From positions 193,482 to 257,481 of the forward strand of contig JBAYMG010000001.1 in NCBI GenBank assembly GCA_041663665.1: a stretch of 64,000 nt of DNA, written 5' to 3'. A program made the translations under genes and the position numbers. The notes below the pieces were generated by a model. It was not told where the DNA came from and made no database searches. It was given only the letters and a program-made list of their open reading frames with translations. This DNA is from Candidatus Omnitrophota bacterium (lineage in GTDB: Bacteria > Omnitrophota > Gorgyraeia > Gygaellales > Profunditerraquicolaceae). This document shows positions 29,848 through 41,324 of this stretch, piece after piece (positions within the stretch are counted from its first letter, which is position 1; every line of letters starts with the position of its first letter).

Positions 29848-29879
29848 TTGACAGACCACACATTTGTGTGGTATATATA
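29848..29879 (+). promoter_or_regulatory. lexA promoter with palindromic operator: TTGACA -35, CCACACA-TT-TGTGTGG palindrome, TATATA -10
   Basis: TTGACA at 29848-29853; perfect 7-bp-arm palindrome at 29856-29871; TATATA immediately after; ATG at 29883, so the transcript is leaderless or near-leaderless. Confidence 0.55.
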
Positions 29880-29882
29880 ACC

Positions 29883-30485
29883 ATGAAAGAGAAGCCATTT
29901 TTGACGCCAAAACAGGAGCAGGTGCTTAATTTTATTCGAAAACGGGTAGGGGAGAGGCTCCCTCCTACAATTCGTGAAATAGGAGAGGAGCTGGGATTTA
30001 AATCTACAGGTACGGTAAGGGACTATCTTAAGGCATTAATGCAGAAAGGTCTGGTGAAGCGGATGAATAATAAATCCAGAGCAATTGAGCTAACTGAACG
30101 CGCATCAATTAAAATTCCCATAATTGGTACCATAAATGCCGGTAAGCCGAATTTGGCTTATGAAGAAATTCAAGGTTATGTTGATGCTGATGATTTGTTT
30201 CTTGGCCGCTTAGGCTTTGATGATGTTTTTGCTTTGAGGATTAAAGGCGACAGCATGATTGATGCCGGGATACTTAATGGCGATATTGCTGTGATTAAGA
30301 AACGCCCGAATGCCGACAATAATGATATAGTTGCTGCGTTGCTGGATAATAATGAGGTTACCTTAAAGAGGTTAAGCAGTAAATCCGGCAAGTTTCATCT
30401 GGAAGCTGCGAATGCCAATTATGCGCCGATTTTTGAAGAGTTTAAAGTTATTGGTAAGTTGATTACGGTGATCAGAAAATATTAA
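29883..30485 (+). CDS. lexA: LexA repressor
   Basis: N-terminal winged HTH (LTPKQEQVLNFI...IREIGEELGFKSTGTV); C-terminal S24 peptidase (GDSMIDAGI; Lys in IAVIKKR). Confidence 0.9.
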   Translation: MKEKPFLTPKQEQVLNFIRKRVGERLPPTIREIGEELGFKSTGTVRDYLKALMQKGLVKRMNNKSRAIELTERASIKIPIIGTINAGKPNLAYEEIQGYVDADDLFLGRLGFDDVFALRIKGDSMIDAGILNGDIAVIKKRPNADNNDIVAALLDNNEVTLKRLSSKSGKFHLEAANANYAPIFEEFKVIGKLITVIRKY

Positions 30486-31545: not shown

Positions 31546-32652
31546 ATGATTTTACATGTTGATATGGATGCTTTTTTTGCTTCGATTGAACAGGCAATTA
31601 ATCCGCGGCTTAAGGATAAGCCTTTAATCGTTGGTTCACGCGGCAATAAAATGCACACTGTAGTTTGTGCGGCCAGTTACGCTGCCAAAGCTTTGGGTAT
31701 ATATTCCGGAATGCCTTCCAGGGAAGCATTTGCCAGATGTCCAAATTTAGAGTTTGTGGAAGCTGATCAATCTAAGTATATTTGGACTTCGGAGCAGATT
31801 TTTGAGCTTTTAAAAAGCTTTAATTTTCCCCTGAATTATGCCTCAATTGATGAGTTCCAAATGGACTTAGGTGCCCATGAAAACCCGGTAAGTTTGGGTA
31901 ACGAACTTCGAAAGCAGATCTATGCAGACTTTAACATTACTGCTTCAGTAGGCATTGCCAAGAATTGGCTTTTAGCAAAACTTGCTTCTAAGCTGAATAA
32001 ACCAGATGGCTTGGCTTTGATTAATGATGAAAATTTTGAGGCAGTTTTACGGAAGACTTCATTAGATGAATTATGCGGTATGGGCGGTAAAACCGGTCAA
32101 GTTTTTATTGCTCAGGGCTTAAAAACCTGCTGGGACTTATACCTAAACTTACCGGCTTTTTTTGATAATAATCCTAGTAAGTTTGATGAAAATCCCGGTA
32201 AGTCTAGTGAATTGCCTAAGTCGGTTAGTCATTCATATACTTTGCCAAAAGTTCAAATAAACCACCAGGTTATTCAGGCCTGGATTAGGCTTTTGGCTGA
32301 GATGGTTGGTACCAGGTTGCGGCAGCAAAATTTAGTTAGCGCAACTGTGCATCTTTGGTTAAATGGCCCGGAAATCGGTAATTTTGGAGCTCAGAAAACT
32401 TACCCAAATCAGGCCACAAATGATGGTTTCGAGATCTACCAGAGAGCTTCTAAGGTAATGGCTAGATTAGCCGCTAAAAATCCCAGAATTCGGGCAATTG
32501 GGGTTACCTGCAGCAGTCTTTCTTTAAGCGTCTATCAACCCTTGTTTAGTGAAGAAATCCGCAGGGAGGGCCTTATAAAGGCTTTAGACCGTATAAATAA
32601 CCGCTTCGGAGAGGGGTCAATTTATCCCGCAATAACTTCTTTTACCCGTTAA
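31546..32652 (+). CDS. dinB: DNA polymerase IV (Y-family translesion polymerase)
   Basis: ILHVDMDAFFASIEQ catalytic motif with Asp/Glu retained; 368 aa. Confidence 0.85.
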   Translation: MILHVDMDAFFASIEQAINPRLKDKPLIVGSRGNKMHTVVCAASYAAKALGIYSGMPSREAFARCPNLEFVEADQSKYIWTSEQIFELLKSFNFPLNYASIDEFQMDLGAHENPVSLGNELRKQIYADFNITASVGIAKNWLLAKLASKLNKPDGLALINDENFEAVLRKTSLDELCGMGGKTGQVFIAQGLKTCWDLYLNLPAFFDNNPSKFDENPGKSSELPKSVSHSYTLPKVQINHQVIQAWIRLLAEMVGTRLRQQNLVSATVHLWLNGPEIGNFGAQKTYPNQATNDGFEIYQRASKVMARLAAKNPRIRAIGVTCSSLSLSVYQPLFSEEIRREGLIKALDRINNRFGEGSIYPAITSFTR

Positions 32653-32754
32653 TAGTTAACAAAATCCCCGTAAAAAAATTTTTAATTAAAGGCAAAAAAT
32701 CTAGAGAAGATGGCGCATGTATTCCGCTTAAATTGTCAGGTATAAAATAACGCG

Positions 32755-32768
32755 GTAAGTTTAAGTAA
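32755..32768 (+). repeat. left arm of the 14-bp inverted repeat GTAAGTTTAAGTAA flanking dif
   Basis: Exact reverse-complement partner at 32928-32941. Confidence 0.7.
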
Positions 32769-32856
32769 AAAAGAAACGGCTTTTCCACAGCTTAAAAACA
32801 GGCTTTAGTAAAGTGTTATCTCCCATTGGTTTATGAACACTTAGCAAATACAGACA

Positions 32857-32884
32857 AGTTAACATAATGTACATTATAGGAAGT
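32857..32884 (-). other. dif: dif-like XerC/XerD chromosome dimer resolution site
   Basis: The reverse complement ACTTCCTATAATGTACATTATGTTAACT matches B. subtilis dif ACTTCCTAGAATATATATTATGTAAACT at 24 of 28 positions. Its XerD arm TTATGTTAACT matches E. coli TTATGTTAAAT at 10 of 11. It sits exactly at the convergent strand switch. Confidence 0.75.
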
Positions 32885-32927
32885 AGACTAAAAGGGCAAA
32901 ATAGACTAAAACTGCTCATGGTGCACT

Positions 32928-32941
32928 TACTTAAACTTACT
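32928..32941 (-). repeat. right arm of the inverted repeat (TTACTTAAACTTAC on +)
   Basis: Perfect 14-nt match to the revcomp of 32755-32768; abuts the stop codon of the DUF134 gene. Confidence 0.7.
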
Positions 32942-33301
32942 TCAATTTTTACTTGGTTTTGTGTTAGTTAAATTTATAGGATTTTGTTTTACATCCTGGC
33001 GGGAACTTAGTATATATTGGCCTCCTTGAATTCTTATGGCTGATCCGGTAGTTATCCCTTTAGCGATTAAACCTCTGGCTTTTTTTAAGATTCGGCTAAA
33101 GGTTTGTTGGGATATACGCATTGAGCTGGCTGCTTCTTTTTGGCTTAAATTTAAGCAATCGGCTAGCCTCAGGGCTTCAAATTCGTCCATTCTAAGCCCT
33201 ACTTCGTCTGGCCTGCCAGGCTTGCCTCTGGGGCTAAATTGGCTTATTTTAGGGTCAACTTTGACTATTCTATATTTCTTGGGTCTTCCGCGCGCTCGCA
33301 T
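32942..33301 (-). CDS. DUF134 (UPF0251) predicted DNA-binding protein
   Basis: RGRPKK...VKVDPKISQFSPRGKPG...LRMDEFEALRLADCLNLSQKEAASSMRISQQTFSRILKKAR...AIRIQGG fits the DUF134 pattern. Confidence 0.6.
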   Translation of the reverse strand: MRARGRPKKYRIVKVDPKISQFSPRGKPGRPDEVGLRMDEFEALRLADCLNLSQKEAASSMRISQQTFSRILKKARGLIAKGITTGSAIRIQGGQYILSSRQDVKQNPINLTNTKPSKN

Positions 33302-33312
33302 TAATTTTCCTC

Positions 33313-33387
33313 AAACTTACTTAAATTTAACGCCCAGGTTAATATGAGTACATACTCATAAGTAACATTTAAAAAGTATTTTGTCAA
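33313..33387 (-). promoter_or_regulatory. DUF134 upstream region: -35 TTGACA (revcomp of 33382-33387), palindrome ATGAGTACATACTCAT (33344-33359) and a third TTAAGTAAGTTT motif copy (33313-33328)
   Basis: All elements read directly from the sequence; the palindrome has 7-bp arms. Confidence 0.4.
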
Positions 33388-33402
33388 GCACAAAATCAGG
33401 GT

Positions 33403-34372: not shown

Positions 34373-34768
34373 TTATAGTTTATAAACTTTATCGTCTTGC
34401 CTGACCCGGGAGCTTACTTGCAAGCCTATTTCATCGCCTTTTTTGGCTTTTGAAATGTTAACTCTATCCATTTGCATGGAAGTAATTGTTTGAGTGAAAT
34501 CTGTAGTGTGGCCTTTTATTTTTAAAGTTTCTCCCATTGCTAGCGGCGCCTTTAACTTAATTACGGCGGCCTGAACATGTGGAAAATAATGTGTAACTAT
34601 ACCGATTAGCTTGCCGGCTTTTTTTAGTGTAACCTTTGTTTTGGCAAGCGGTTTATTTTTAACCGTTTTCTTGATTATTTTTTTTGCTGTTTTTTTGACA
34701 ATCTTTTTAACGGTTTTTTTTACTGTCTTTTTTTTAGTTATTTTTTTTATTTTCTTTTTTAAAGCCAT
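34373..34768 (-). CDS. histone-H1-like Lys-rich tail fused to an EF-Tu domain-2-like beta-barrel
   Basis: N-terminal KKTVKKTVKKIVKKTAKKIIKKTVK repeats; C-terminal IGIVTHYFPHVQAAVIKL...GETLKIKGHTTDFTQTITSMQMDRVNISKAKKGDEIGL resembles small translation-elongation-factor-like barrel proteins. Confidence 0.55.
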   Translation of the reverse strand: MALKKKIKKITKKKTVKKTVKKIVKKTAKKIIKKTVKNKPLAKTKVTLKKAGKLIGIVTHYFPHVQAAVIKLKAPLAMGETLKIKGHTTDFTQTITSMQMDRVNISKAKKGDEIGLQVSSRVRQDDKVYKL

Positions 34769-34779
34769 GGCGAATCTCC

Positions 34780-35106
34780 TTATAGGACTATTTTGTCCGA
34801 TATTTCGCTCACAACCGGTATACGGCTATAAACACCTAGCGCAGCCTGCATAATTCCCCAGACTGAAACTAAAAGGAATAAAACATAGCCGAAAATTCCG
34901 ATCAACCAGCCCAGGAAAGGTATGATTGATAAAATAAACGCGGTAACTTCCATAACGAAAAGCACCAGGCCTTGTCTGGCGTGGTAAAGAGCGAATTTAT
35001 TGCTTTTTTTAAGAATAAGCGTAATTATGCAGAGAAAAGAAATATAAGAAATTACTGCAAAAAATTTACCTTCGATAATTTCCTGTTCTTCGGGTGTGTG
35101 GGTCAT
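34780..35106 (-). CDS. DUF4870 membrane protein
   Basis: GKFFAVISYISFLCIITLILKKSNKFALYHARQGLVLF matches the DUF4870 core; 4-nt overlap with the ParA gene. Confidence 0.5.
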   Translation of the reverse strand: MTHTPEEQEIIEGKFFAVISYISFLCIITLILKKSNKFALYHARQGLVLFVMEVTAFILSIIPFLGWLIGIFGYVLFLLVSVWGIMQAALGVYSRIPVVSEISDKIVL

Positions 35107-36218
35107 TTATTTACCTCAAGTAGTGAATCCAGTGTTCCGTAGGTGTTTAGTTGAACTTGCGGGTTAGCCGGATCCTCGACCCAGTTTCCGTCGATAACAA
35201 ATCGGTAACGATATTTGCCGTCTTCCAGGTTTAGTTGTTTAGTCCAGCAGCCGTTAGATTGTTCCATTTTACTGCTTTCGTCAAGTTTCCAGCTGTTGAA
35301 TTCGCCTGCCAGATAAACTTCTTTGGCGTTTGGTGCTTGGATTGAAAGTTTAATCTCATTTAATTTTGGTAGGCTCTCTTGTATTTTTGGCAGATTTTCC
35401 TGGAGAATCACCTGCATGCGTTTTTCGAATATTTTTGGCAGATTAGCAGCCGGTTGAGGCGTTGTTTCCTGAGTGATAATTTCACGTGAAAGGCTGAAAT
35501 AGTCTTTTGCCCCGCGGCAGTATTTATCATAGGCAAAAACGTGCAGGCCTTCATTTTGAGCTTCCTTAAGTTTTACGTTTACATGGATAATATTTGAAAA
35601 CATTTTATTGCTATAATCGCTTTTAATTTTTTCCAGCATTTTGAATGAATGTGCTAATCGAGAATCAAAATTTGTAACTAAGACACCAAAGTCTACTTTG
35701 TGGCCTAATCTTTCGGTGATTAAATCAATAATACTGGTAAGTTGAGATAATCCTTCAAGTGAAAATCTGCTGGCTTCAACCGGAATAATGATTTCGCTTG
35801 CTGCACGGATGGCGTTAATGGTTAAGATGCCCAGGTTCGGCGGGCAGTCAATTAAGATGTAATCATAGTTAGAACCGAAATTTTTTAATATATCCCAGAG
35901 TCGGGATTCACGGCCGATCTCTCCGCTTAATTCCTGCTCAAGCGTGCTTAAGATTATTGAGGATGGTGCGATATCAAAATTTTCGCCGAAGTTTTGGATA
36001 ATATCTCCCAGGGAGCTTTTTTTATGGGCGATTTTTGATAAGACATTGTAGATACTTAGATCGGCTTTAATATTTAAGCCGCTGGTTGCGTGTGACTGCG
36101 GATCAAGGTCAATGAGTAAAACTTTACGGTTATTTGTTGCCAATGCTGCAGCTAGGTTTATCGAGGTAGTTGTTTTACCGCAGCCGCCTTTTTGGTTGGC
36201 AATTGAGATAATTCGCAT
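35103..36218 (-). CDS. ParA/MinD-family ATPase fused to a C-terminal AMPK-beta-type glycogen-binding domain (CBM48)
   Basis: Deviant Walker A KGGCGKTT. The C-terminal KEVYLAGEFNSWK...EDGKYRYRFVIDGNWVEDPANPQ...GTLDSLLEV closely parallels the AMPK beta GBD (KEVYLSGSFNNW...EGEHQYKFFVDGQW..DP). Start at the ATG at 36218, preceded by GGGAGGG. Confidence 0.8.
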   Translation of the reverse strand: MRIISIANQKGGCGKTTTSINLAAALATNNRKVLLIDLDPQSHATSGLNIKADLSIYNVLSKIAHKKSSLGDIIQNFGENFDIAPSSIILSTLEQELSGEIGRESRLWDILKNFGSNYDYILIDCPPNLGILTINAIRAASEIIIPVEASRFSLEGLSQLTSIIDLITERLGHKVDFGVLVTNFDSRLAHSFKMLEKIKSDYSNKMFSNIIHVNVKLKEAQNEGLHVFAYDKYCRGAKDYFSLSREIITQETTPQPAANLPKIFEKRMQVILQENLPKIQESLPKLNEIKLSIQAPNAKEVYLAGEFNSWKLDESSKMEQSNGCWTKQLNLEDGKYRYRFVIDGNWVEDPANPQVQLNTYGTLDSLLEVNK

Positions 36219-36281
36219 TAGCAATCCCTCCCTGCGCAAGATGCGCTTACCGGTTTTTCTTGATATAAAAACCGGCGATGA

Positions 36282-36854
36282 TTATTTTAGAACCCTGATG
36301 TTATCCAGATAAACTATTCCTGTTTTTTCACGGGCATTCCATTCTTCAACTGTAAAGACCAGAGATTTCATTTGCTGCCAGTCGTTAATTTTAGCAAAAC
36401 GGGAAAAATCTATCCGGTGATCCGACCATTTGTTCAAAATATCTTTAACGTAAACTTCTGATTTTTCGTCAAAGCGATTTATAAATTCTACTCTTAAAGA
36501 AAGGATATCTTTAGAATTGGTTTTTCTTGCGGCAAAAGCCAGTTCTTTGTACTTGGATAAATTTAATTGTTTGAGATTTACGGTTAATGTTTCCTTGCTT
36601 GCCGGGTCAAAATTAAAATTTATTTTTGCTGTGTCTTGATGCAAAAATAAAGCAACTTCGGTGTTGGATCTAGTTTGGTCAAAATAATTAAAAACTGCAA
36701 AACTGCCAATACCTAAAAATAATGCTAAAAAGCTAACGATTAAATTTTGCTTGGTTTTAGGATTAAGCCAGAATTTCCGTTTTTTCTTTGACGATTTTAA
36801 AGAGGCATCCAGATAAATATTAGCCAGATGCTCATAAATTTCTTTCTTATTCAT
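36282..36854 (-). CDS. membrane-anchored hypothetical protein (candidate partner of ParA-CBM48)
   Basis: One TM helix; no known domain. Own promoter TTGACA-N17-TATAAA (revcomp of 36865-36893) with an almost leaderless start. Confidence 0.45.
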   Translation of the reverse strand: MNKKEIYEHLANIYLDASLKSSKKKRKFWLNPKTKQNLIVSFLALFLGIGSFAVFNYFDQTRSNTEVALFLHQDTAKINFNFDPASKETLTVNLKQLNLSKYKELAFAARKTNSKDILSLRVEFINRFDEKSEVYVKDILNKWSDHRIDFSRFAKINDWQQMKSLVFTVEEWNAREKTGIVYLDNIRVLK

Positions 36855-36889
36855 TTGAACTAATTTTATAACACAAAACCCTATTTATG

Positions 36890-38434
36890 TCAAGGGGTTA
36901 AGGGCTCTGTTAAGTATGCCGGCTGGTCAATTTCAAGCAGCGTATATAGATTGGATAAATGCAGCCTAAATAACTTGTCAAATGAGCCGTCCGGGTCCTC
37001 TCCATACCACCAAAACCAGTCGCTTCCTTCTAGGATATACATTTGTTTTAAGGCAAGTTCGCTGGGGGTTTTTGTGTTTTCTAACGCTTTCCGAGCGCTA
37101 GCCAGCCATTCCCAGGCTTTTACTTTGTAAGGATTGCCAATCCATTTACCGAATTCACCGTAAATCCAGGATCCTGCGCTTAAGCGTTTTATTTGGCGCT
37201 TGGCAGGATTAAGTTTTAGATAGTCGCTTATGGTTGTAGTTTTGATAAAATCGCTTTCCGAAATCTTTTGGTAAAATAATTCCAGAAAATCATGTCCATC
37301 GTTACGAAAATATTCCCAGGCATTCTCCCCATCCATGGCGATAGTGACTAAGGTGTCTTTATTTTTAAATGCCTTATGAATATTTTCTAAATGGGACATG
37401 AAGTTATTTACAGCATCGGTTTCTTTCATATTGCTGTAAGAAAATCCGATTAAATCTGAAAGATTGCGGTCACGGAAAACTATGCTAAGCTCTCCCTCTT
37501 TTCTTTTTAATAAGTGCGGTTGATAAAGCAGCTGGGTGTTACGCTTATTTAATTTTAAGGATTTAAATAGAATTGCCTCGTCGGTAACAATCCATTTTAT
37601 ACCGGAATTAATTATAAATGGCAGGATGTGTTCGCAGACTCCTTCTTCCGAAGGCCACATGCCAAGGGGTGTATTGCCAAATCTATCTTTATAAAATTTT
37701 GCGGCGCTATCAATTTGGTATTTTGCGTCTTGGGGGTAATTGAATTCTACTTTAGGCAGAACAGTTTTTTTGTTAGCTTCTTTGGCGATGTTGGTACTGT
37801 AAAGTAACGGTAAAATCGGGTGATAATATGGGGTAACGCTTATCTCAATTTGGTTATTTAAGGAAAACTTCCGGTAAGCCGGGATGATTTCTTTTAATAT
37901 TTGGAGTTGTATATTTAAAACAATTTGTTTGTCCTCTTCGCTAAAGAATCTTTCCTTAAGTACGATTTTTTTAAGTTCAGGTATATTTTGCCTAAAAGTT
38001 GGATCGATCCAGGCTAAATTAAAGTAAAGTTGCAGGTCTAGGAAATCTTGGGTTAAAAATTCATGATTGCGTTGTTTTTTTAAGGCTAGTTCATAATAAC
38101 GCGGGAAATTTAGAATTACCTTTTCTTTATTGATTGAGAAAAAATTTTGGAGGATAAATTCTTTATCGGTATTAGTAAGTAAGGCTGCCGGTTTTTGGGT
38201 TAGTTGGCTAAATTTATCTTTGACCAGGTTATTATTGTAATCTTCAATCTGTTCAAATAAAGACGGGACAACATTAAAAGTTTGTTTGATCTTGGGAAAT
38301 TTTTCCAGGATTTGCACCATATCCAGGTAATCTTTAATTCCGTGCAATCTTACCCAAGGAAGGGTGCTCTCTTGGGTTAAGAGGTTCTTGTAATACGGTT
38401 GATGCATGTGGAAGATAAAGGCGAGGTTAATCAT
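36890..38434 (-). CDS. glycoside hydrolase family 57 (alpha-glucan branching/4-alpha-glucanotransferase-like)
   Basis: N-terminal FIFHMHQPYY, the GH57 HQP signature; 514 aa. Confidence 0.8.
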   Translation of the reverse strand: MINLAFIFHMHQPYYKNLLTQESTLPWVRLHGIKDYLDMVQILEKFPKIKQTFNVVPSLFEQIEDYNNNLVKDKFSQLTQKPAALLTNTDKEFILQNFFSINKEKVILNFPRYYELALKKQRNHEFLTQDFLDLQLYFNLAWIDPTFRQNIPELKKIVLKERFFSEEDKQIVLNIQLQILKEIIPAYRKFSLNNQIEISVTPYYHPILPLLYSTNIAKEANKKTVLPKVEFNYPQDAKYQIDSAAKFYKDRFGNTPLGMWPSEEGVCEHILPFIINSGIKWIVTDEAILFKSLKLNKRNTQLLYQPHLLKRKEGELSIVFRDRNLSDLIGFSYSNMKETDAVNNFMSHLENIHKAFKNKDTLVTIAMDGENAWEYFRNDGHDFLELFYQKISESDFIKTTTISDYLKLNPAKRQIKRLSAGSWIYGEFGKWIGNPYKVKAWEWLASARKALENTKTPSELALKQMYILEGSDWFWWYGEDPDGSFDKLFRLHLSNLYTLLEIDQPAYLTEPLTP

Positions 38435-38512: not shown

Positions 38513-39883
38513 TTAGAATGTTACTTTCATTGAACCAATTAACTGGGTTGCATTAGCTGCATCTGAAGTAAGGGCGTTACCTGGCAGAAAATATCCGCCA
38601 GTTAAGCCGAACTGCACATCTTCAGTATAGTCATAGGTAATAGTTCCATCAAGTGCACTACCTAAATATGCCTTACCAGTATAGGTGCTTTTACCATCAG
38701 TACCATAATAATTAGTTCCATTATTATAGGTGCCAGGAATACTGAATTCGCCTGTACTTTTTTGGGCTACGGTGTAGTATCCATAAACAGCAGATACGGT
38801 GACATCTTCAACTGGTTTACAGCTTGCTCTTAAGTTATAAGCGTTCATGTTTGAAAAAGGCAAGATCGTGTAAACAATGTTATTGAGTTTTTGATCATAG
38901 AACATGGCATCCCAGCCATCATTCTTTTTATCACTGCTATTATCATTATTACTTTTACTTCCTGAAAGATAGGTATAAGAAGCACCAATCTTAGGAGTGG
39001 TTTTTACTTTGGAAAAAGTATAATCGGCCATTGCTTGTACTGCCCAAGCATTATGCTTTTTCTGGTTATTTGTTGCTGTGTTTCTACCAAACTGATATGC
39101 AGCTTCTAAAGAAGTGCTTAGATCTTCGATTGGTGCAGCAGAAATTAAACCGCCGATTGTAGAAAGTTCATCTGGTCTGCTGGTGGTAGAATTCATTGTG
39201 CTAGTGGTATGGTCATCATTCTTCTTAAGCCAGTAATATGCAGAAACATCAACTTTTTTGTTTATAGCATAAGTGGCATTAATACCAGTTAAACTAACGG
39301 TATTTCTATCAGTTGTATTGGTTTGTTTTACTTGAGCATAAACTAAATCCACAATTAGAGGATCATAGTTTAAGGTTGCGCGGATAGCATCAAAAGCTTT
39401 TCTTTCAGTTAAATCTGTAGGAATGCTTGATGATGTTCCGATTGCCTTTGCATTGCCAATAATTAATCCGTTACCGAATTTAATTTCCTGACGGCCAACG
39501 GTTAAAGTTAAAGGTGAATATAAGAATTCTTTTAAAGCAACGTAAGCAAGGTCAAGATCAATGTTGGTGTTATTGCTGCTTGAGCTGGTGTTGGCATCGT
39601 TTTGTCCATTCCAGACTCTTTCGTTGATCAATCTTACGGTAGCCATGACATTATCAGTAAGATCGGCATCAATACGGACTCGAATTTGAGACATTAAGAA
39701 GTTCTGCTTTAAAACACTTTTGTCTCCAGGGGCGTTGTTGTCTAAATTAAAATGGTTTCTGGCAACTACACTTGTAATAATATCTCCACTAATTTTTACA
39801 TTCTGTACCTCGGCATAAGCGGCGCTAAATGTTAGGCCGAATACCAAAGCAAGCGCTAATACTGCTATTAAGCGTTTACCCAT
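38513..39883 (-). CDS. outer-membrane beta-barrel (porin-like) protein
   Basis: Signal peptide ...SAAYA, alternating amphipathic strands, C-terminal ...KVTF. Confidence 0.55.
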   Translation of the reverse strand: MGKRLIAVLALALVFGLTFSAAYAEVQNVKISGDIITSVVARNHFNLDNNAPGDKSVLKQNFLMSQIRVRIDADLTDNVMATVRLINERVWNGQNDANTSSSSNNTNIDLDLAYVALKEFLYSPLTLTVGRQEIKFGNGLIIGNAKAIGTSSSIPTDLTERKAFDAIRATLNYDPLIVDLVYAQVKQTNTTDRNTVSLTGINATYAINKKVDVSAYYWLKKNDDHTTSTMNSTTSRPDELSTIGGLISAAPIEDLSTSLEAAYQFGRNTATNNQKKHNAWAVQAMADYTFSKVKTTPKIGASYTYLSGSKSNNDNSSDKKNDGWDAMFYDQKLNNIVYTILPFSNMNAYNLRASCKPVEDVTVSAVYGYYTVAQKSTGEFSIPGTYNNGTNYYGTDGKSTYTGKAYLGSALDGTITYDYTEDVQFGLTGGYFLPGNALTSDAANATQLIGSMKVTF

Positions 39884-41130: not shown

Positions 41131-41196
41131 ACTCCTTATGTTTTTTTAAGCCTAGTGTAGTCCTACCGAACACAAATTTAGGTAGGGAATTGTTAA

Positions 41197-41270
41197 CGCC
41201 CCTGGCAGGAATCGAACCTGCCGCACGCAGTTTAGGAAACTGCTGCTCTATCCTTATGAGCTACAGGGGC
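41197..41270 (-). tRNA. tRNA-Arg (anticodon CCT)
   Basis: Revcomp GCCCCTGTAGCTCATAAGGATAGAGCAGCAGTTTCCTAAACTGCGTGCGGCAGGTTCGATTCCTGCCAGGGGCG folds as a cloverleaf: anticodon stem GCAGT/ACTGC, loop TTCCTAA, T-arm GGTTCGATTCC. Confidence 0.8.
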
Positions 41271-41324
41271 AGATTTAATACTCTACGCATAAAATATTGC
41301 GCAGGTGTGCTCTCTTGCGAGGGC

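Follow-up and report, generated by a model that had tools for sequence, protein, structure and literature searches.

A ParA-type ATPase fused to a CBM48 module and linked to peptide-bearing partner proteins in Omnitrophota and other bacterial phyla: a candidate system for glycogen positioning

The stretch of Candidatus Omnitrophota bacterium DNA analyzed here (the window; 64,000 nucleotides [nt], GenBank assembly GCA_041663665.1, contig JBAYMG010000001.1, positions 193,482 to 257,481 of the forward strand) encodes a ParA-type ATPase that ends in a carbohydrate-binding module of family 48 (CBM48). The gene for this ParA-CBM48 fusion is preceded by that for a membrane protein of 190 amino acids (aa), p190, and by a gene of glycoside hydrolase family 57 (GH57), and it is followed by genes for two small proteins, the first a membrane protein. 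The open reading frames (ORFs) named in the original prediction, which had been made from the sequence alone, were all recovered at their positions, all on the minus strand (Table 1). ParA/MinD ATPases are the general bacterial means of placing chromosomes, plasmids, carboxysomes, and chemoreceptor arrays, and glycogen is the most widespread storage polymer. We know of no dedicated positioning system for glycogen, and the ParA-CBM48 family is a concrete candidate for one.

Table 1. Coordinates of the features of the ParA-CBM48 locus in the window
Feature	Coordinates	Strand	Description
GH57 amylopullulanase-like enzyme	36890..38434	-	Clade-specific neighbor, not a constant part of the system
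Sigma-70-type promoter of p190-parA	36865..36893	-	-35 TTGACA at 36893-36888; 17-nt spacer ending in an extended -10 TG; -10 TATAAA at 36870-36865
p190	36282..36854	-	190 aa; bitopic inner-membrane protein, N-in/C-out; candidate cognate ParA partner
p190, residues 1-25 (MNKKEIYEHLANIYLDASLKSSKKK)	36780..36854	-	Cytoplasmic amphipathic helix and basic patch; proposed ParA-docking/activating peptide
p190, transmembrane helix, ~residues 32-62	36669..36761	-	Helix 32-62 in the AlphaFold2 (AF2) model
p190, periplasmic beta-sandwich, residues 66-189	36288..36659	-	CBM11/CBM30/CBM8-like fold
ParA-CBM48 fusion gene	35103..36218	-	371 aa; ATG at 36218, GGAGGG upstream of the ATG
Layout of the fusion			Soj-type ATPase, ~1-255; low-confidence helical linker, ~256-290; CBM48/AMPK1_CBM, ~291-371
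ATPase module, residues 1-255	35454..36218	-	Chromosomal ParA/Soj type
CBM48 (AMPK-beta-type glycogen-binding) module, residues ~291-371	35106..35348	-	
108-aa small membrane protein	34780..35106	-	Facultative neighbor; ATGA overlap with the ParA stop
p131	34373..34768	-	Lys-rich N-terminal tail and small beta domain; frequent downstream neighbor

The fusion protein is cytoplasmic. Its ATPase module was matched by AAA_31 over residues 1-175 in the Pfam profile search (E 1.1e-54), and its best solved relative was ParA of Myxococcus xanthus (MxParA, 8RAY; E 2.5e-53), followed by Soj of Thermus thermophilus and Soj of Helicobacter pylori, the same ranking as that obtained by Foldseek with a model of the fusion. 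McdA (6NON, E 4e-14), MinD, and ParF were much weaker relatives than the chromosomal ParA/Soj proteins, and among the NCBIfam models those for ParA partition were the nearest. Assignment to MinD (minD_bact, 56 versus a cutoff of 213), to BY-kinases (eps_fam, 46 versus a cutoff of 108, with no Tyr cluster at the C terminus), and to BcsQ, a cellulose secretion subunit that belongs to the ParA/MinD family (TIGR03371, 62.9 versus a cutoff of 157.85), was rejected; these branches are also countered by the C terminus of the fusion, which is a CBM and carries no amphipathic helix. BcsQ has no CBM, and no synthase or other bcs gene lies near the fusion.

Conservation was calculated over 77 full-length sequences comprising a near and a distant group of homologs. 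In the deviant Walker A motif, NQKGGCGKT, residues K10, G11, G12, G14, and K15 were 100% conserved, and T16, the motif 2 residues D37 and D39, and the Walker B residue D124 were invariant or nearly so; the three aspartates align with the motif 2 and Walker B regions of MxParA. Basic residues of the putative DNA-binding surface are largely retained. R187, which we take to be the counterpart of R189 in Bacillus subtilis Soj, where R189 and R218 are presumably the basic residues of nonspecific DNA binding, was kept in 39 of the 40 distant members. K216 aligns with R238 of MxParA (chain index equals residue number minus 19) and is K or R in all 37 near members and in 28 of the 40 distant ones. The substitution R238E abolishes nonspecific DNA binding of MxParA, as reported in the paper from which 8RAY originates (PMC12462528).

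The C-terminal module was recognized by AMPK1_CBM (PF16561) over residues 297-370 with 53.0 bits (gathering score, 26.8) and by CBM_48 (PF02922) with 26.3 bits (gathering score, 22.4). The last 94 aa matched the CBM structures of the AMP-activated protein kinase (AMPK) subunits beta1 and beta2 (1Z0N/1Z0M/2F15, E ~1e-11), then the CBM48 of pullulanases and the CBMs of the starch phosphatases SEX4 and LSF1. The combination first proposed for this gene, a deviant-Walker-A ParA with a C-terminal AMPK-beta-like module, is thus borne out for both domains, each of which lies above its Pfam threshold. In the 1Z0N alignment, W310, R339, and W346 align with the W, K, and W of FNNW...YKFFVDGQW, which presumably correspond to the sugar-platform residues W100, K126, and W133 of AMPK beta1. 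Residues W310, W325, Y336, Y338, D343, G344, W346, D349, G361, and S365 were invariant or nearly so, and position 339 was K or R, with a 50:50 split in distant members. The motif and platform residues remain invariant or nearly so among the distant homologs as well, and we conclude from the alignment that strong purifying selection acts on both the ATPase motifs and the glycan-binding residues. In the AF2 model, the core of the module (residues 290-345) was all-beta with six strands at a predicted local distance difference test score (pLDDT) of ~80.

The full-length fusion architecture was carried by more than 240 clusters at 90% identity. The best 120 clusters (76-83% identity) all contained PF16561 and carried no name more specific than "AAA family ATPase" or "chromosome partitioning protein." A second search, started from a Myxococcaceae seed, again returned at least 120 clusters, all of them fusions and some on contigs of 3-5 Mb. 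With one genome per GTDB species, 80 loci (numbered with the prefix L below) were found, all encoding the full-length fusion except three cut by contig ends. About 40 of the 80 belong to Omnitrophota (48-81% identity), and about 40 to other lineages (35-45% identity), namely, Myxococcota/"delta proteobacteria," Rokubacteria, Gemmatimonadota, Planctomycetota, Eisenbacteria, Acidobacteria, Margulisiibacteriota, and others, so that the fusion spans at least eight phyla. Because the architecture is shared at full length by more than 240 clusters and 80 species-level loci, the fusion is neither a chance product nor an assembly artifact. The survey of ParA homologs with a C-terminal CBM48 that the original prediction had suggested thus uncovered a family annotated only generically, though it occurs in at least eight phyla and in hundreds of sequence clusters. 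The claim that it is not a described family agrees with a full-text literature search in which no description of a ParA-CBM48 fusion was found, most subscription journals lying outside its coverage.

A separate exhaustive search with the CBM alone was swamped by tandem-copy proteins and gave no size estimate for the fusion family. By summed score, the module is closest to proteins in which this CBM48-like domain is repeated in tandem 3-18 times (P0241-P0390), many of them ~480 aa long with four copies and some exceeding 6,000 aa. This tandem architecture is abundant (8,491 clusters at E <= 1e-3) and uncharacterized.

The gene for p190 lies directly upstream of the fusion in 39 of the 39 Omnitrophota loci with upstream sequence. 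Its homologs form 656 clusters, none with a Pfam domain, and p190 itself gave no Pfam match even at an E value of 10. Among 38 homologs (63-76% identical overall), conservation is highest over residues 1-25 (MNKKEIYEHLANIYLDASxKSSKKK), which hardly vary, the transmembrane segment is variable but hydrophobic, and the C-terminal domain is moderately conserved. Membrane anchoring had been predicted correctly, with one transmembrane helix in the N-in/C-out orientation; in the same 38 homologs its flanks carry charges of +6.6 on the N side versus +0.95 on the C side, and the peptide is therefore placed in the cytoplasm and the beta-sandwich in the periplasm. The protein had also been listed as being of unknown fold, which no longer holds, as its C-terminal domain is a beta-sandwich with fold similarity to CBM11/CBM30-type beta-jelly-roll modules; in one protein of a distant family of p190 homologs, F12, CBM30 scored 24.4 bits (gathering score, 27). 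No DNA-binding domain is present in p190. Its N-terminal helix is amphipathic, with a hydrophobic moment of 0.43 that falls in the top 4.5% of shuffled sequences.

The N-terminal peptide connects p190 to the partners found in other lineages. The motif [KR][DE][IL]Y[ED]HLAx[IV]YL with a Lys-rich patch is present in all p190 homologs and is kept in the very divergent F12 proteins (e.g., TQEQLADIYFSATGK), whose genes precede the fusion in eight additional loci; when the distant loci were searched for the p190-type motif, no family other than F12 had it. In the remaining phyla, it is the next ORF after the fusion that starts with (K/R)xL[GA][RK]GL-E-D-V-S-H-L-F-L-S, and an adjacent ORF opening with L[GA][RK]GL-EDVSHLFLS or a variant of it occurs in at least 19 loci. 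The string L[GAS][RK]GL was matched 39 times in 847,000 six-frame residues, and 16 of these matches follow the fusion gene closely and in the same orientation, in 15 loci. Prefix-less variants of the LG(R/K)GL peptide were seen in L058, L069, L070, and L072. Altogether, peptide-bearing neighbors were recorded in L044, L048, L050-L056, L058, L059, L064, L065, L068-L070, L072, L076-L078, L082, and L084.

LGRGL is an established ParA-binding motif of ParB. In M. xanthus, ParB residues L11, L15, L18, and I19 enter a ParA pocket formed by V116, L150, L152, L155, L187, and L192, and ParB R13 touches Y81/E82/D110/E117 of ParA. The core common to all partner classes is E-x-hyd-[SA]-x-hyd-[FY]-hyd-[SPD] (hyd, hydrophobic residue), which in p190 reads EHLANIYLD; p190 and F12 match the LG(R/K)GL-EDVSHLFLS motif in its second half. 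Residues I6, L10, I13, and Y14 of p190 have the same spacing (i, i+4, i+7, i+8) as L11, L15, L18, and I19 of ParB, and the MxParA pocket maps to Q95, L129, I131, I134, L166, and L171 of the fusion, five of which are hydrophobic. The equivalent of MxParA E82, position 58, is E or D in 12 of 14 LGRGL-type loci and Asn in 31 of 37 p190-type and 8 of 8 F12-type loci, where the peptides have no counterpart of the Arg R13; Y81/E82 were aligned by eye (IYNVL with IYEAL), as HMMER had set the indel elsewhere. We propose that the N-terminal peptide of p190 serves as a ParA-docking/activating peptide.

The bodies that carry the peptide differ by lineage. In Omnitrophota the body is a transmembrane helix with a CBM-like domain, and elsewhere it is F9, F21, or, in Myxococcota, a protein of ~260 aa encoded within a MerR-ParA-260aa-F9-ECF (extracytoplasmic function) sigma operon. 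F9 (~200-230 aa) was present in 16 of 32 informative distant loci; its body had no reliable Pfam or structural relative, with a weak signal of NucS_C (PD-(D/E)xK-like) at 18 bits and PDB profile E values of 0.09-0.14. F21, in some loci, is a degenerate MinD/ParA-like protein. F9, F21, and the ~260-aa Myxococcota protein appear to be ParA partners of hitherto unrecognized classes. No ParB with a ParBc or helix-turn-helix (HTH) domain was found beside the fusion in any of the 80 loci or among the recurrent neighbor families. The idea that a ParA carrying its own polysaccharide-binding domain would need no ParB-like adaptor is contradicted, because a peptide-bearing partner is invariably present, p190 in the 39 informative Omnitrophota loci and LG(R/K)GL-type proteins elsewhere. 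The family therefore departs from the usual ParA layout in that a cargo-type domain sits on the ATPase and the putative activating peptide on a separate, evolutionarily interchangeable partner. The shared peptide also offers a handle for biochemistry and for the annotation of the hypothetical proteins p190, F12, F9, and F21.

The sigma-70-type promoter of p190, TTGACA-N17-TATAAA, was found exactly as originally predicted. Its -35 element overlaps the TGA stop of the GH57 gene, and its -10 element ends 10 nt before the p190 ATG at 36854. The same arrangement, with TTTTGTG[T/C]TATAAA, precedes p190 in ~24 of 26 loci (L001-L025 and L039), at a variable distance from the ATG, and is kept where GH57 is absent (L022 and L025). 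A generic promoter scan missed it, as that scan requires T at the sixth -10 position. Conservation in relatives (phylogenetic footprinting) is good evidence that the promoter is real. With a conserved promoter between GH57 and p190, the core transcription unit therefore starts at p190, and the earlier view that ParA is transcribed after GH57 as one operon is not supported. No terminator was found between GH57 and p190, so that read-through from GH57 is possible. The spacer between p190 and parA (36219-36281, minus strand) is unusually long, at 63 nt against ~14-22 nt in relatives, and has a minimum free energy of -20.2 kcal/mol (z, -2.5). It can form a hairpin of 10 bp, CCGGUUUUU...AAAAACCGG (36250-36275), and another, small one immediately ahead of the ribosome-binding site GGAGGG. 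Because a U-tract is absent, the spacer hairpin is no classical terminator.

The GH57 product belongs to PF03065 (E 1.7e-62) and matched the solved amylopullulanases 8ZYI/9IHT and their relatives with E ~1e-84 over residues 4-493 (PMC12106739). Neighbors were compared by tblastn synteny over the 80 loci and by blastp clustering, gene calls in the high-GC loci being heuristic, and glycogen genes were probed in the window and the 80 loci with GH57 and with GlgP, GlgA, GlgC, GlgX, and GlgB of Escherichia coli. GH57 lies upstream of p190 in the 25 closer Omnitrophota loci and is absent in L026-L038 and L046; in more distant Omnitrophota the order is porin-p190-ParA. Outside Omnitrophota, the probes found only GlgC (L045) and GH57 (L047), and two more loci, L044 and L052, had GH57-like ORFs by blastp clustering. 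In the Pfam analysis of 191 neighbors in 40 distant loci, neither a recurrent glycogen family nor ParB was present. General glg linkage of the fusion family was rejected because the probes found one GlgC and Pfam no recurrent glycogen family; the predicted tie to glycogen genes survives as adjacency in the 25 closer Omnitrophota loci and is lost in the more distant ones. Omnitrophota metagenome-assembled genomes have been reported to encode glycogen synthesis (PMC8542988).

The reading that we prefer, and put forward tentatively, is that the fusion is a ParA that binds the nucleoid, holds glycogen without an intermediary, and is cycled by a partner anchored in the membrane. The core would be a two-gene ParA system, p190 followed by ParA-CBM48, with its own conserved promoter. 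The ATP-bound ParA-CBM48 dimer would bind the nucleoid nonspecifically, and its two C-terminal CBM48 modules would bind cytoplasmic alpha-glucan (glycogen) directly and bivalently, so that ParA-CBM48 would tether glycogen particles and distribute them on the nucleoid. Docking of the cytoplasmic peptide of p190 at the ParA dimer interface would trigger ATP hydrolysis, with turnover or release of the tether at the inner membrane, the site of the p190 anchor, while the CBM-like domain would face the periplasm. In the closer Omnitrophota, the GH57 amylopullulanase would have been recruited beside this module. The data show the domain layout, the conserved residues, the linked genes, the conserved promoter, the p190 fold and topology, and the peptide motif common to the partners; we infer glycogen binding, DNA binding, the contact between peptide and ParA, and the cellular function, including granule positioning. 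The system would add a further variant to the ParA/MinD positioning systems and would not form a category of its own.

Several observations weigh against this proposal. The AF2 model of the fusion, built with 34 close homologs as input, was poor as a whole (pLDDT 60), and because of this the CBM fold of the fusion rests on sequence; in the Foldseek search with this model the ATPase dominated the matches and the CBM fold obtained no structural confirmation, so that the structure prediction asked for originally provided the all-beta core and not the identification of its fold. A glg or GH57 gene lies within 8 kb in only ~4 of 40 loci of other lineages. K216 stands in place of the DNA-binding Arg, and this position is nonbasic in 12 of the 40 distant members. 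The pocket residue V116 of MxParA is a Gln (Q95) in the fusion, and the covariation at position 58 may stem from only one or two evolutionary events. The partner bodies differ by phylum, and by ParA logic the cargo could therefore differ as well and glycogen binding could have another role. The membrane anchor and periplasmic domain of p190 are not predicted by granule positioning and would suit a role of p190 as cargo or sensor.

Those last points lead to the strongest of the alternatives, which we hold to be distinctly less probable: p190 or its membrane complex would be the cargo or target placed on the nucleoid (compare PpfA/TlpT and ParC/ParP), and the CBM48 would either sense glycogen status, as is thought for AMPK, or sequester the ATPase on glycogen. 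In known ParA systems the cargo is defined by whichever protein carries the activating peptide, the gene with strict linkage is that for p190, and ParA stays constant while the partner bodies vary between phyla; the periplasmic CBM-like domain and the conserved upstream barrel of the Alginate_exp type suggest an envelope-associated function. Nevertheless, there is no sign that p190 forms a discrete, countable structure in need of partitioning, and a glycogen-regulated ParA is without precedent. The glycan platform, moreover, is invariant in all lineages whatever the type of partner, which argues that glycan binding is central and not modulatory.

It is unlikely that the C-terminal module is a protein-protein interaction domain of CBM48 fold that binds no glycan, docks on another protein or on the ATPase (compare the AMPK beta CBM on the kinase domain), and has no glycogen role. 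Such a domain would fit the weak glycogen-gene linkage outside one clade and the abundance of CBM48-like modules in very diverse multirepeat proteins. However, the invariant residues are exactly the sugar-platform residues of the CBM48 modules of AMPK-beta, SEX4, and pullulanase, loss of glycan binding is normally accompanied by loss of the platform aromatics, and in one clade a GH57 amylopullulanase was recruited beside the module. Very improbable, finally, is an ordinary chromosomal partition ParA (Soj) with an accessory domain and with the LGRGL neighbors as unconventional centromere-binding proteins: among solved structures chromosomal ParAs are the nearest, most of the putative DNA-binding and ParB-pocket residues are retained, the weak NucS_C signal of the F9 body could mean DNA binding, and a MerR-type regulator lies upstream in Myxococcota, but no adjacent ParB (ParBc/HTH) was found in any of the 80 loci, p190 as the partner in the window sits in the membrane and has no DNA-binding domain, and the fusion is an extra paralog at least in Myxococcota, because canonical ParAB is known there (PMC12462528).

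Glycogen gripping by a nucleoid-bound ParA can also be extended to the whole family, in a form that we regard as improbable. In that form the family would be modular and phylum spanning, an ATPase with an invariant glycogen module combined with lineage-specific partners that link glycogen stores to different cell structures, and in Omnitrophota p190 would act as a link across the membrane: periplasmic glycan held by its CBM-like domain would cluster p190, bring the cytoplasmic peptides side by side, and switch ParA. Just as doubtful are its details, by which the partners would share an N-terminal E-x-hyd-S-H-hyd-F-L-S docking peptide with the LGRGL prefix being optional. If this were true, external carbohydrate status would be coupled to the organization or mobilization of internal glycogen.

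Comparison with known systems places the fusion closest to ParABS (M. xanthus ParA 8RAY and Thermus/Bacillus Soj), with which it shares the ATPase subfamily, the fold, and the deviant Walker A Lys. The putative DNA-binding position has kept its basic charge, and the candidate pocket for the ParB-like peptide is still mostly hydrophobic. As in ParABS, the product of an adjacent gene bears an N-terminal peptide, here a candidate partner peptide that in many loci of the fusion family is literally LG(R/K)GL. Unlike ParABS, the fusion has the extra C-terminal CBM48, and its partner is no ParB, lacking the ParB/Srx CTPase, HTH, and parS logic; in the window, the partner is bitopic with a periplasmic CBM-like domain, and its peptide has no central Arg. 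McdA-McdB, PpfA-TlpT, ParC-ParP, and PomXYZ share the concept of a nucleoid-bound ParA-type ATPase that distributes non-DNA cytoplasmic cargo, with a partner supplying the N-terminal activating peptide, as proposed here. In McdA-McdB and the orphan ParA systems, cargo is recognized only via an adaptor, whereas in the fusion family a cargo-type domain is part of the ATPase, and the peptide belongs to a separate protein that is membrane anchored or has a body of another kind.

The CBMs of AMPK beta, SEX4, LSF1, pullulanases, and branching enzymes are the closest kin of the module, with the same W...K/R...W platform; their known hosts are kinases, phosphatases, and glycoside hydrolases and, in the literature searched, never a P-loop partition ATPase. 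PhaM of Ralstonia eutropha tethers polyhydroxybutyrate granules to the nucleoid so that daughter cells inherit them. Such attachment of a storage granule to the nucleoid is the function proposed for the fusion; PhaM, however, is no ATPase, is unrelated in sequence, and is a passive tether, while the fusion tether would be nucleotide cycled.

Among the remaining neighbors, the 108-aa membrane protein had been labeled DUF4870, to which it scored 15.9 bits, below the gathering score of 25 (E 0.013), with nearly the whole model covered; the label is not upheld. The ATGA stop/start overlap with ParA at 35103-35106, from which translational coupling had been proposed, is present in the window but is not conserved in relatives, and the gene occurs in 24 of ~40 Omnitrophota loci and is missing from about a third of them. 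The gene for p131 follows downstream of the fusion in 32 Omnitrophota loci. Its product starts with a Lys-rich repeat tail, KKIKKITKKKTVKKTVKKIVKKTAKKIIKK..., gave only marginal matches to an EF-Tu domain and Peptidase_U32_C in profile searches, and could be a nucleic acid- or polyanion-binding protein.

Upstream of GH57, the ORF at 38513-39883 (minus strand) encodes an outer-membrane beta-barrel of the Alginate_exp type (PF13372, E 1e-31). The barrel gene is conserved at the position immediately preceding [GH57]-p190 in most Omnitrophota loci, and its product may have a functional tie to the CBM-like domain that p190 exposes to the periplasm. A gene for a 152-aa lipoprotein-like product and a PHP-domain gene lie upstream of the barrel gene. 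In the Myxococcota loci L082 and L084, an ArsA/ParA-like ATPase gene pair and a PGM/PMM-family mutase gene were found ~7-9 kb downstream of the fusion.

Across the window, all ORFs of at least 150 aa lie on the plus strand to the left of 32.7 kb and on the minus strand to the right, in a convergent arrangement with the switch at ~32650-33400. The GC skew drops from values of +0.15..+0.28 to ~0 at the strand switch, and the cumulative skew reaches a plateau near 40-42 kb; the switch resembles a replication terminus or an inversion boundary. Genes for LexA (29868-30485) and a DinB-like polymerase (31546-32652) lie just to its left. The only RNA gene detected in the window, for tRNA-Arg(CCT) (41196-41271, minus strand), lies between the APRT and PHP genes and separates the housekeeping genes farther upstream (PPDK, a sigma factor, and APRT) from the PHP-lipoprotein-porin-GH57 run.

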